A stretch of 12,743 bases of DNA from Escherichia phage ECO95 1-6-1: sequence record OR845264.1; one strand, 5' to 3'. The translations under genes and the position numbers were made by a program. The notes under the pieces are model-generated. The model saw only the letters and a list, made by a program, of their open reading frames with translations, was not told where the DNA came from and did not search any database. Shown in pieces: positions 6,472 through 7,061 of the stretch. Position 1 is the first letter of the stretch, and each line of letters begins with the position of its first letter.

Positions 6472-6582
6472 TCAAGGAGTATAAAATCCGAATGCAGTTG
6501 TTGACCATCCCATCCAATATGGAAAATTTGCACCAATGTAAAACATAAGAATATAAAACCAACCGCTCAGCAAATTCATCAT
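6472..6582 (-). CDS. Hydrophobic 36-aa micro-peptide (MMNLLSGWFYILMFYIGANFPYWMGWSTTAFGFYTP)
   Basis: Tandem ATG-ATG start overlapping the TGA of the upstream 65-aa ORF. Its own stop overlaps the RBS of the next gene. Aromatic-rich. Confidence 0.3.
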   Translation of the reverse strand: MMNLLSGWFYILMFYIGANFPYWMGWSTTAFGFYTP

Positions 6583-6776
6583 TTTACACCGTTCCAAATT
6601 GTTTCAACCACAGATTTTAAACCATTTTGATGAATGTCCATTCCGACAACTGCCATCAAATAGATTCCAACCACAACTGAACCCAAGGCGAAAATCAGCA
6701 TGAAAATGAATAAAGCCGGAAAAATATTATCGAAAAACCATTCAATAAATGTAAAAGCACTACGTTTACGCTTCAT
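6579..6776 (-). CDS. Small membrane protein, 65 aa from the ATG (the track's 72-aa version starts at TTG)
   Basis: The internal ATG at 6776 is preceded by GAGGAAAAT directly after the upstream TGA. One predicted TM helix (FPALFIFMLIFALGSVVVGIYLMAVVG) after a basic N-terminus (MKRKRS). Confidence 0.45.
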   Translation of the reverse strand: MKRKRSAFTFIEWFFDNIFPALFIFMLIFALGSVVVGIYLMAVVGMDIHQNGLKSVVETIWNGVK

Positions 6777-6783
6777 ATTTTCC

Positions 6784-6897
6784 TCACATAAATCCAAAGT
6801 AAGCGTTTAATACATCAATCATTAAAACGATTGGGAATATACTCAAAACTACTAGTATTATAACTACATTCCATATAGCTTTAATAATCTTTTTCAT
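6784..6897 (-). CDS. Small membrane peptide, 37 aa (the track's 82-aa version starts at TTG and reads through the promoter)
   Basis: ATG at 6897 preceded by GGAGGAACAGAAA. Sequence MKKIIKAIWNVVIILVVLSIFPIVLMIDVLNAYFGFM. The longer TTG-start version would contain the early promoter, so the short form is preferred. Confidence 0.35.
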   Translation of the reverse strand: MKKIIKAIWNVVIILVVLSIFPIVLMIDVLNAYFGFM

Positions 6898-6925
6898 TTT
6901 CTGTTCCTCCGTAGTTGATAGAGTA

Positions 6926-6954
6926 ATAGTACCACGGAAGAACAGTCTTGTAAA
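6926..6954 (-). promoter_or_regulatory. T4-type early promoter (copy C)
   Basis: - strand: -35 TTTACA (plus 6949-6954), 17-nt spacer, TGG + TACTAT (plus 6926-6931). Followed by UAUCAACU...GGAGG and an ATG. Confidence 0.45.
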
Positions 6955-6962
6955 CAACTTTT

Positions 6963-7061
6963 TTAAAAATATTCGTAATAAATGTGAATACCAACTACTA
7001 CCGCTGAAACCTGTGCAACCCACCACGCACAAGCAATAAGTACAGAATTCATAATTTTCAT
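6963..7061 (-). CDS. Hydrophobic 32-aa micro-peptide (MKIMNSVLIACAWWVAQVSAVVVGIHIYYEYF)
   Basis: ATG preceded by GAGGTTATT. Ends at TAA just upstream of promoter copy C. Very short, so speculative. Confidence 0.25.
   Translation of the reverse strand: MKIMNSVLIACAWWVAQVSAVVVGIHIYYEYF

Follow-up and report, generated by a model that had tools for sequence, protein, structure and literature searches.

The window analysed here (the whole stretch of 12,743 nucleotides from Escherichia phage ECO95 1-6-1, record OR845264.1) is Tequatrovirus (T4-like phage) DNA, and the region between its ndd (5734-6189) and denB (7485-8042) genes almost certainly carries, judging from sequence comparison, five separate genes for single-helix microproteins of 28-65 amino acids (aa), i.e. 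real membrane micropeptide genes of the T4 type. This block corresponds to the "ndd-denB intergenic" gene set of T4, and its genes are those of Ndd.6, Ndd.5, Ndd.4, the DUF7248 protein (Ndd.2a read together with "Ndd.3") and Ndd.2. The ORFs share 95-100% amino-acid identity with T4 Ndd.2, Ndd.2a(+Ndd.3), Ndd.4, Ndd.5 and Ndd.6 and their order between ndd and denB is kept. The genes are thus already known, being catalogued as T4 ndd.2, ndd.2a, ndd.4, ndd.5 and ndd.6, and the finding is mainly a re-discovery. As to their function, we suggest, by analogy with other small membrane proteins, that the peptides may bind a component of the host membrane, a mechanism to which we give somewhat less than an even chance; the explanation as a whole, i.e. 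T4-type micropeptide genes with an accessory, host-membrane-binding role, we regard as evenly poised between holding and failing.

Identity and layout of the block

The T4 annotation lists ndd.2, ndd.2a/ndd.3, ndd.4 and ndd.5 as "hypothetical predicted membrane/periplasmic proteins", the exact sequences already have public database entries, named [quoted passage not shown], and the UniProt entries for T4 Ndd.2-Ndd.6 describe uncharacterized proteins of 3.4-8.1 kDa from the same region. The statement of the sequence-only reading that these peptides have no assigned function therefore holds, their status in T4 being the same. The named T4 genes had gone unrecognised in that reading. The corresponding families are Pfam DUF7248/PF23906 and PF26889 as well as phrog_4135, 2401, 3098, 5011 and 8851.

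The sequence-only reading had described a run of four minus-strand ORFs between ndd and denB (6963-7061, 6784-6897, 6579-6776 and 6472-6582). All four are present at these positions, but a fifth single-helix peptide (7058-7144) had been overlooked, and the block, although indeed located between ndd and denB, is not alone there, as two soluble ORFs (ndd.1 and an 87-aa ORF) lie in the same interval. That each of the four encodes little more than one hydrophobic helix applies to three of them, which have a clear transmembrane helix, whereas 6472-6582 is only weakly hydrophobic (best 19-residue Kyte-Doolittle means of 2.17 for 6963-7061, 3.05 for 6784-6897, 2.71 for 6579-6776 and 1.17 for 6472-6582). 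The claimed translation signals, i.e. GAGG or GGAGG ribosome-binding sites or ATGA stop/start overlaps, are in place. Two of the ORFs had been thought to be missing from the mechanical ORF list or mis-started; in fact, none is missing and all four are extended to an upstream TTG.

Two early promoters each drive one translationally coupled unit of these genes. Both promoters were located by a consensus scan on the minus strand, are of the T4 type and read GTTTACA-N17-TACTAT with a TG before the -10 element. P1 (7439..7468), whose homologous site is annotated in the T4D record X75802.1 with promoter, -35 and -10, heads unit 1, which consists of the 87-aa ORF, the Ndd.6-like gene and the Ndd.5-like gene. 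P2 (6926..6955), likewise an annotated promoter in X75802.1 and kept in 17 Tequatrovirus copies, heads unit 2, which runs from Ndd.4 via DUF7248 and Ndd.2 to Ndd.1. Ndd.1, with which unit 2 closes, is a soluble protein of 71 aa (6248..6463, minus strand; 69/71 residues identical to T4 Ndd.1; phrog_2183); its gene is followed, at the end of the unit, by a GC-rich stem-loop, GGCCGC...GCGGCC, which was located and folded (6222..6241, minus strand) and whose counterpart in X75802.1 bears a stem_loop annotation. An Rfam search of the window gave no match to an RNA element.

In T4, Ndd.2-Ndd.6 are encoded by the same genes in the same order, on the same strand and behind the same two early promoters, but the window differs in having the additional soluble 87-aa ORF upstream of Ndd.6 (7141..7404, minus strand; RB69ORF270c-like, phrog_2390). 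This first cistron of unit 1 has a GGAG upstream of its ATG at 7404 and its stop overlaps the Ndd.6-like start (ATGA). The mechanical ORF 7141-7503 is over-extended through P1, and the PHROG match covers residues 34-120 of its 120 aa. T4 and T2 lack this ORF; a remnant of 8 codons, MKI(A/V)EIEL followed by the stop, preserves the coupling to Ndd.6 there.

The individual peptides

The Ndd.6 orthologue (7058..7144, minus strand; 28 aa, MSSLWWCFVWLISIPVICLTFTFVMRLL) has a single transmembrane helix, overlaps both neighbouring ORFs via ATGA, is identical to T4 Ndd.6 in 28/28 positions and gives a full-length profile match to phrog_8851 (E=1.6e-17). The Ndd.5 orthologue (6963..7061, minus strand; 32 aa, MKIMNSVLIACAWWVAQVSAVVVGIHIYYEYF), also with a single transmembrane helix, shares 31/32 residues with T4 Ndd.5 and matches phrog_5011 over its full length (E=9.4e-26); its start at 7061 combines an upstream GAGG with an ATGA overlap with the stop of the preceding ORF.

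The Ndd.4 orthologue (6784..6897, minus strand; 37 aa, MKKIIKAIWNVVIILVVLSIFPIVLMIDVLNAYFGFM) is a single helix and matches phrog_3098 over its full length (E=5.6e-21); each of the 29 homologues retrieved is labelled PF26889 in precomputed annotation. In the family alignment (25 sequences) N10, P22, I27 and D28, which lie inside or adjoin the helix, are invariant, and the Ndd.4 of the window has all four as well as the K-x-I-W-N head. T4 Ndd.4 is annotated with 42 aa from an upstream ATG, but this codon is ACG in the window, and a GGAGG is located 8 nt upstream of the start at 6897. The start of Ndd.4 is the ATG with the ribosome-binding site, yielding 37 aa as opposed to the 42 aa annotated in T4. 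AlphaFold2, run with the family alignment, predicts one helix for the 37-aa form, comprising residues 2-36 (pLDDT 93).

The DUF7248 protein (6579..6776, minus strand; 65 aa, MKRKRSAF...IWNGVK) corresponds to T4 "ndd.3" and "ndd.2a" as one gene, the start of which, at 6776, is preceded by a GAGG. It matches PF23906 with 71.9 bits at a cut-off of 27 (E=4.4e-20, residues 6-63 of 65) and also phrog_2401. Its N-terminus is basic and precedes a long transmembrane helix, and its C-terminus carries the conserved motif NGLKSV(V/I)(E/D)xIWNG. Throughout the alignment (19 sequences) L53, K54, S55, V56, W61 and G63 are nearly invariant, whereas the sequence of the helix drifts. AlphaFold2 with the family alignment predicts helices at residues 8-17 and 19-62 (pLDDT 80). 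Paralogy of Ndd.5 and DUF7248, which share S-x-VVVGI, was considered and rejected, as there is no DNA similarity beyond 9-mers.

Finally, the Ndd.2 orthologue (6472..6582, minus strand; 36 aa, MMNLLSGW...FYTP) is identical to T4 Ndd.2 in 35/36 positions, gives a full-length profile match to phrog_4135 (E=1.7e-24), contains no charged residue and is 34% aromatic. Its start at 6582 lies in an ATGA shared with the stop of the preceding 65-aa ORF; several relatives, however, have ATA in place of the first ATG, so that conservation places the start at the second ATG, at 6579 (35 aa).

The DUF7248 gene in T4 and T2

Whereas the 65-aa gene is intact in the window, it is split in the T4 reference record. 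A real frameshift in T4 was rejected as explanation, since the missing base is confined to X75802, AF158101 and NC_000866, while eleven other T4 or T4-type records carry the extra base; the intact ORF was read directly in the resequenced T4 record MT984581, and the DUF7248 protein of the window is identical to it. Comparing these records, the split into "ndd.2a" and "ndd.3" is a 1-nt sequence error. Among T2 stocks, two lineages have independent nonsense alleles of the DUF7248 gene, so that this gene, at least, is easily lost in culture. The stop codon in a "T2 escape mutant" record was rejected as an escape mutation because the same allele is present in four other records (T2 MH751506, PV648363 and PV958097, and SV76).

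Conservation, selection and distribution

Short hydrophobic frames may arise by chance, and the ORFs might not be genes at all but chance frames on a T-rich strand, the DNA being kept for promoter or recombination (PeSL) functions. The sense strand contains 40% T, the window has other hydrophobic, non-genic frames, and the proteins are undetected by mass spectrometry. Nevertheless, the ATG-ORFs of at least 28 aa number 5 in the 673-bp block, with strong hydrophobicity in 4, and together they take up 89% of one strand, whereas 2000 dinucleotide shuffles averaged 1.75 such ORFs, of which 0.26 were hydrophobic, at a coverage of 30%; at least 4 hydrophobic ORFs occurred in 0/2000 shuffles (P<0.001) and coverage of at least 85% was similarly rare (P = 0.0015). 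For four of the five genes, the differences among 17 Tequatrovirus copies fall mostly at third codon positions, with pN/pS values of 0.10 (Ndd.6), 0.12 (Ndd.5), 0.07 (DUF7248) and 0.13 (Ndd.2). Ndd.4 DNA shows no synonymous variation within Tequatrovirus, which would also suit a non-coding role, but its pN/pS is 0.26 among 14 copies outside the genus. Moreover, the ribosome-binding sites and stop/start overlaps are conserved, and homologues in other genera, which occupy the same position, are conserved at the protein level at 46-67% nucleotide identity. We thus consider it highly improbable that the ORFs are not genes; rather, the pattern of substitutions demonstrates that the genes are maintained by purifying selection. 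The sequence-only reading had held that broken frames in close relatives would speak against it; the frames are kept in close relatives (pN/pS 0.07-0.13) and in other genera, with sporadic stops, frameshifts or in-frame fusions in single genomes.

Four to five other genera of the Tevenvirinae also have Ndd.4, Ndd.6 and DUF7248 and, with weak similarity, Ndd.2; Ndd.5 is clearly conserved within Tequatrovirus only. Homologues of Ndd.6 are conserved yet unannotated in five examined genomes from four other genera; in RB69, SP18, IME08, PEi26 and Entb45 they show an NTGA overlap with the upstream ORF. The composition of the block varies: PM2 has Ndd.4 alone, RB69 has Ndd.6 without Ndd.4, DUF7248 and Ndd.2, and Kanagawaviruses have Ndd.6, Ndd.4 and Ndd.2, the latter sharing G-x-N-x-x-YW-x-G, with DUF7248 present or absent. 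This genus-dependent membership suggests that the peptides may act independently and renders an obligate hetero-oligomer of all five unlikely.

Expression, dispensability and homology searches

In T4, RNA of the block genes was classed as "early", and the block proteins were undetected by proteomics, as expected for such peptides (PMC9697503, RNA classes in supplementary file 4); translation is therefore deduced from conservation alone. In published T4 screens every ndd.x gene was "Not Fit" upon knock-down and "Non-essential" upon transposon insertion, i.e. without fitness effect, no conditional effect was seen for ndd.x genes in minimal medium, and no ndd.x gene was depleted from transposon libraries under RexAB, RnlAB, CBASS, DarTG1 or DarTG2, the only defence systems tried. 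Hence, the block genes are dispensable in T4 on laboratory hosts. We found no functional study of any ndd.x gene in the literature and no papers on "ndd.2a", DUF7248, PF23906, PF26889 or the PHROG identifiers.

Profile searches of the PDB yielded weak matches to hydrophobic helices only, the best being a pilin (E=0.022). A full HMMER scan, in which the 65-aa protein was compared with 1.84 billion representatives, returned 8 matches, 4 of which are short proteins or fragments belonging to the family, the remaining ones being stretches of unrelated large proteins. Pfam, PHROG and NCBIfam gave no match to Imm, Sp, holin, RI, spanin or any defence-related family, and Pfam, NCBIfam and PADLOC nothing beyond DUF7248 and a compositional match to KwaA (E=0.012).

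These results bear on the roles proposed in the sequence-only reading, namely superinfection exclusion, lysis timing and inhibition of membrane defence, for which we obtained no evidence: there is no family similarity, transcription is early rather than late, and the T4 screens revealed neither a fitness effect nor a requirement against the five defence systems. Imm and Sp, which serve superinfection exclusion in T4, and RI/T, which time its lysis, are membrane-anchored envelope proteins, and Imm and Sp are early. The peptides, being early-expressed small membrane proteins as well, might act like Imm/Sp or like a holin, antiholin or RI, and the rII genes, which affect lysis behaviour, adjoin the block. 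However, Imm, Sp and RI/T are larger (about 80-220 aa), have functional extramembrane or multi-helix parts and are encoded at other loci, and T4 already has dedicated genes for these roles elsewhere. Early-type promoters and early T4 RNA disagree with the late or lysis-cassette expression of a holin or antiholin, and the absent fitness effect also argues against these roles, although knock-down and insertion assays would not score exclusion. Together with the missing family matches this makes exclusion or lysis timing quite improbable.

An anti-defence function, in which one or several peptides would bind transmembrane segments of a membrane-embedded abortive-infection or defence effector, is unlikely, too, if a little less so. 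The outcome would be analogous to that of rIIA/rIIB against RexAB, and the block shares its early, deletable region with the defence-related rIIA/rIIB and stp. Gene content that differs between genera is typical of arms-race genes, and cassette exchange has been described at exactly this locus in the PeSL paper (PMC4122927). On the other hand, the KwaA match, a very weak one between Ndd.4 and a transmembrane segment of KwaA, is no better than composition alone would give, the T4 libraries show no depletion under the defence systems named above, and the sequences are highly conserved (pN/pS about 0.1) instead of fast-evolving.

Possible mode of action

We favour a role in binding a host membrane component. 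The peptides would enter the host inner membrane directly after infection and, according to the positive-inside rule, Ndd.4, DUF7248 and Ndd.5 would adopt an N-in/C-out and Ndd.6 probably an N-out/C-in topology. Each may be an accessory host-takeover factor acting alone, which would contact a putative partner, i.e. a host inner-membrane protein or a lipid-synthesis enzyme, via helix-helix interactions; in DUF7248 the contact might be made by the conserved 20-residue C-terminal tail. The invariant N10, P22, I27 and D28 of Ndd.4 and the DUF7248 motif amid a drifting helix point to contacts that are specific and do not merely reflect hydrophobicity.

Bacteria use small single-helix proteins (30-50 aa) in this way, binding a larger membrane protein within the bilayer: AcrZ binds AcrB, MgrB binds PhoQ, and MgtS likewise is a small inner-membrane regulator. 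They are host-encoded and have no homology to the phage peptides, but the single-helix architecture is common to both. A phage-encoded working model is T4 Ac, a small membrane peptide that neighbours the block (5491-5646 in the window, 51 aa) and shares the early deletable region and a similar size and hydrophobicity with the Ndd peptides. One proposal is that Ac becomes inserted in the membrane of the host, where it would impair the AcrAB-TolC pump (bioRxiv 10.1101/2025.06.30.662393). It has no sequence similarity to the Ndd peptides and, unlike them, has a genetic phenotype (acriflavine susceptibility), its mechanism itself being proposed.

Alternatively, the peptides might be host-toxic and depolarise the membrane in the manner of type I toxins or pinholins, resulting in early shutdown of energy-dependent host functions. 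TisB and Hok are type I toxins, small and hydrophobic, and the peptides resemble such toxins in both respects. Kutter et al. also describe host-lethal products for many of the small immediate-early T4 genes in deletable regions (PMC6071114). Yet, the conserved polar, Pro and Asp positions of Ndd.4 and the extramembrane motif of DUF7248 favour specific binding over generic membrane damage, and we give toxicity only a slim chance.

Specific binding could also concern lipid metabolism. T4 no longer stimulates phospholipid synthesis when it carries the sa-delta-9 deletion, which removes 52.1, ac, stp, ndd, ndd.1-ndd.6 and denB, and with rII-delta-DD2, a deletion that overlaps it in part, the stimulation specific to phosphatidylglycerol is lost. 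Sensitivity to acridine dyes was the trait by which the "sa" deletion mutants, as a class, had been isolated, and the authors remark on several predicted membrane proteins among the products of the deletable region (PMC6071114). These observations would suit one peptide being the determinant of phosphatidylglycerol-synthesis stimulation and membrane repair, acting on an inner-membrane phospholipid-synthesis enzyme. However, the strains with the lipid phenotype were multiply mutant and lacked several genes at once, the acridine phenotype belongs to a whole class of multi-gene deletions, neither is mapped to these ORFs, and the peptides have no similarity to any lipid-metabolism protein; we consider this specific assignment rather unlikely. 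In a broader form, which is still improbable, at least one peptide would underlie the phenotypes of the T4 52-rIIB region, i.e. phosphatidylglycerol stimulation and altered acridine sensitivity, by AcrZ-like docking on an enzyme or a pump. The likeliest candidates may be Ndd.6 and Ndd.4, the core pair shared across genera, or else DUF7248. If true, the two independent T2 nonsense alleles of DUF7248 would reflect the cost of this activity on laboratory hosts.

Significance

The practical gain lies in corrected gene models, i.e. the 65-aa gene of T4, the 37-aa start of Ndd.4 and the Ndd.6 homologues in other genera, which matter for genome-wide screens, as these now treat "ndd.2a" and "ndd.3" as separate genes. 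A target for any of the peptides would assign a function to T4 genes that have been unexplained since the 1990s and could also account for old, unmapped phenotypes of the deletable region, i.e. dye sensitivity and the remodelling of phospholipids. Moreover, single-helix peptides of phages that are able to turn off membrane machines of the host would be useful probes or antibacterial leads.

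Gene content of the ndd-denB region

The minus-strand run of small hydrophobic ORFs between ndd and denB (6472-7144; the block) is already known, as its ORFs are annotated T4 genes without assigned function: ndd.2 (6472-6582), a single gene for a 65-aa protein of Pfam family DUF7248 that corresponds to ndd.2a plus ndd.3 (6579-6776), ndd.4 (6784-6897), ndd.5 (6963-7061) and ndd.6 (7058-7144). In a nucleotide search 498 phage records, nearly all Tequatrovirus (T4-like) with Escherichia, Shigella, Yersinia and Salmonella as hosts, match the 801 bases around the block with 90-98% identity. 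Compared with the T4 reference, the minus-strand order is 52, 52.1, ac, stp, ndd, ndd.1, block, denB, rIIB, rIIA; identity to the T4 counterparts is 100% for Stp, Ac and Ndd.6, and 97-99% for Ndd, DenB, Ndd.1, Ndd.2 and Ndd.5. The exact peptide sequences occur on tens to hundreds of contigs in public databases, and UniProt lists them as 'uncharacterized 3.4/3.7/4.4 kDa protein in ndd-denB intergenic region'. In many records the product name given to Ndd.2, Ndd.4, Ndd.5 and even Ndd itself is 'naphthalene 1,2-dioxygenase', evidently an annotation artefact that spread from the symbol 'ndd'.

The sequence-only reading had reported four such ORFs, each encoding little more than one hydrophobic helix. 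All four lie exactly where it placed them, with the ribosome-binding sites and ATGA overlaps it described, but the count was too low: a fifth ORF (7058-7144, 28 aa) had been overlooked, which overlaps via ATGA with both the upstream 87-aa ORF and the downstream 32-aa ORF. Hydropathy bears out the single helix, as three of the four are strongly hydrophobic (best 19-residue Kyte-Doolittle means 2.2-3.1), Ndd.2 being marginal (1.17; no charged residue, 34% aromatic). AlphaFold2 with family alignments predicts a single continuous helix for the 37-aa Ndd.4 (pLDDT 93) and a short plus a 44-residue helix for the 65-aa DUF7248 protein (pLDDT 80). None of 2000 dinucleotide shuffles yielded four strongly hydrophobic ORFs, and a coding coverage of at least 85% (observed, 89%) was reached in 0.15% of 2000; thus, the T-rich strand does not account for the ORF arrangement.

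The 52-rIIB region contains seven small hydrophobic peptides, i.e. 52.1 (46 aa, 5358-5498, minus strand), Ac (51 aa, 5491-5646, minus strand) and the five of the block, and an eighth, the motA.1-like ORF (49 aa, 3879-4028, minus strand), lies just past gene 52. A 26-aa ORF at 5654-5734, overlapping ndd by one base, has exactly the sequence of T4 Stp, the activator peptide of the host anticodon nuclease PrrC.

Corrected gene models

In the T4 reference record (NC_000866; L001 4433-4629) one base is missing after the ATGAA of the 65-aa gene, so that the reading frame falls apart into an out-of-frame 'ndd.3' of 26 aa and an 'ndd.2a' that lacks its N-terminal part. The base is absent only from X75802, AF158101 and NC_000866, three records with a common sequence, and present in 11 other T4 or T4-type records in our list; MT984581 (T4; L024 114-311) encodes an intact 65-aa protein, the same as in the window. 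As the defect is confined to three same-sequence records and MT984581 is intact, the split is a sequence error and 'ndd.3' no gene, although recent genome-wide screens still count it separately from ndd.2a. For Ndd.4, T4 has a 42-aa model whose start codon, an ATG within the Shine-Dalgarno sequence, reads ACG in the window; in every genus the conserved start yields a peptide of 37-38 aa. Upstream of ndd.6, the mechanical 120-aa ORF (7141-7503) runs too far, across the early promoter P1, the real gene being the RB69ORF270c-like 87-aa ORF (7141-7404). T4 has lost this ORF by a deletion between two AATGAAA repeats that leaves an 8-codon leader ORF, in T2 an unrelated 68-aa ORF replaces it, and ime09 has both.

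Conservation and selection

In 17 Tequatrovirus copies variable sites fall chiefly at third codon positions, with pN/pS values of 0.10 (Ndd.6), 0.12 (Ndd.5), 0.07 (DUF7248) and 0.13 (Ndd.2), the soluble Ndd.1 (0.10) being no different. The exception is ndd.4: among 16 intact Tequatrovirus copies it varies at four sites, each of which changes an amino acid and none of which is a third position, against 4-22 variable third positions in the adjoining genes. Beyond the genus, ndd.4 varies normally (16/11/28 variable sites by codon position; pN/pS 0.26, 14 copies). The Tequatrovirus pattern may reflect nucleotide-level constraint, or else the cassette may have gone through a recent sweep or gene conversion.

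Other Tevenvirinae genera carry homologues at the same location, between denB and ndd: Gaprivervirus has Ndd.4, Ndd.6 and DUF7248, Dhakavirus has Ndd.4 and Ndd.6, Kanagawavirus has Ndd.4, Ndd.6, a weak Ndd.2 and, in some of its phages, DUF7248, Mosugukvirus has Ndd.4, and Mosigvirus (RB69) has Ndd.6. The Ndd.4 homologues show 54-59% amino-acid identity; convincing Ndd.5 homologues are confined to Tequatrovirus. The Ndd.6-like ORFs of SP18, IME08, PEi26, Entb_45 and RB69 (L009 and L010 1501-1590, L011 and L012 1498-1584, L014 3883-3966; own numbering) encode 28-29 aa with the motif W-C-x-I-W-x-L-S-I-P-x-I-C and are annotated in none of the five records. The start codon of the Ndd.6 homologues always overlaps the stop of whichever ORF comes before it (ATGA, GTGA or TTGA), and this coupling survives even in T4 and T2, since both, lacking the 87-aa ORF, keep an 8-codon remnant (MKIAEIEL or MKIVEIEL, plus stop) with its Shine-Dalgarno sequence. 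Together, the codon-position pattern, the cross-genus homologues and the kept coupling are strong evidence for translation of, and selection on, the block peptides, and we regard spurious ORFs as highly improbable.

Expression

Two promoters match the T4 early consensus (GTTTACA, 17 nt, TACTAT, TG-extended), P1 (7439-7468) and P2 (6926-6955), both on the minus strand and annotated in T4D record X75802. P1 precedes a translationally coupled unit of the 87-aa ORF, Ndd.6 and Ndd.5, P2 one of Ndd.4, DUF7248, Ndd.2 and Ndd.1, which is closed by a GC-rich stem-loop (6222-6241). All block genes belong to the 'early' RNA class in T4; mass spectrometry detected Ndd and Ndd.1, but not the products of ndd.2 to ndd.6 (PMC9697503 supplement), as expected for hydrophobic peptides of 3-8 kDa.

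Dispensability

The frames are kept in close relatives, but sporadic disruptions, including the fusions and nonsense alleles below, speak against the evidence for selection; single genomes have a stop codon in Ndd.6 of phage sb4 and frameshifts in ECO4, ESh16 and Pu-Krd-SF7. In Shigella phage Sf25 (L018 580-768) a 130-bp in-frame deletion joins the N-terminal helix of Ndd.4 to the C-terminal part of DUF7248, and in a T4 variant (P0008, 151.8-kb record) that of Ndd.5 is joined likewise, both fusions being chimeric single-helix proteins with the conserved DUF7248 C-terminus. In T2 stocks the DUF7248 gene is interrupted by two different nonsense mutations, GGA>TGA at codon 45 in US stocks (L015/L023 580-777; MH751506, PV648363/4, PV958097, SV76) and TCA>TAA at codon 33 in Japanese ones (LC348380, AP018813; L025 121-318, L026), which are independent losses in laboratory lineages. 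Every ndd.x gene was 'Not Fit' in a CRISPRi-ART knock-down in T4 (PMC11879866 supplement) and is classed 'Non-essential' in the HIDEN-SEQ transposon mutagenesis data (bioRxiv 10.1101/2025.11.20.689424). The block genes are evidently dispensable in culture. In phage PST 'ndd.4/.5' are swapped for other ORFs via promoter/stem-loop cassettes (Comeau et al., PMC4122927), an exchange that marks the region as plastic and accessory.

Possible roles of the peptides

Our literature search found no functional study of any ndd.x gene. We propose that the five peptides are accessory microproteins that would insert into the inner membrane of the host in the opening minutes of infection, each to bind some host membrane component; that they act independently follows from a membership that varies genus by genus. 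The positive-inside rule predicts N-in/C-out for Ndd.4, DUF7248 and Ndd.5, and probably the reverse (N-out/C-in) for Ndd.6. In the family alignments N10, P22, I27 and D28 of Ndd.4 are invariant, and in DUF7248 the helix sequence drifts, the C-terminal NGLKSV..WNG tail being fixed, which suggests that the peptides bind specifically and do not just perturb the membrane; a depolarising toxin seems unlikely. The analysis establishes anatomy, conservation, timing and dispensability, whereas membrane insertion, topology and target binding are inferred.

Among the conditional hits that the HIDEN-SEQ preprint reports with RexAB, RnlAB, CBASS, DarTG1, DarTG2 and minimal medium there is no ndd.x gene, and for ndd.2a to ndd.6 the q value is 1.0 in one comparison table of the supplement (bioRxiv 10.1101/2025.11.20.689424). 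We consider a role as anti-defence factors improbable, and give exclusion or lysis timing a similarly small chance. Ndd.4 gave a weak PADLOC match to a transmembrane stretch of Kiwa protein KwaA (E=0.012, 13 bits), which is probably compositional.

Indirect leads come, besides the PST exchange, from lipid data and from Ac, the 51-aa neighbour for which membrane insertion and impairment of AcrAB-TolC have been proposed. T4 no longer stimulates phospholipid synthesis when it carries sa-delta-9, a multi-gene deletion from 52.1 through denB that takes in ndd.1-ndd.6, and in another deletion that overlaps it in part the stimulation specific to phosphatidylglycerol is gone, the strains being multiply mutant and the mapping coarse; 'sa' deletion mutants as a class were isolated by acridine sensitivity (PMC6071114). 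That the peptides serve phospholipid stimulation is to us an unlikely explanation, preferred less than independent microproteins with membrane targets of their own. In practical terms, the analysis yields corrected gene models, and a fifth, overlooked peptide together with its conservation across genera.
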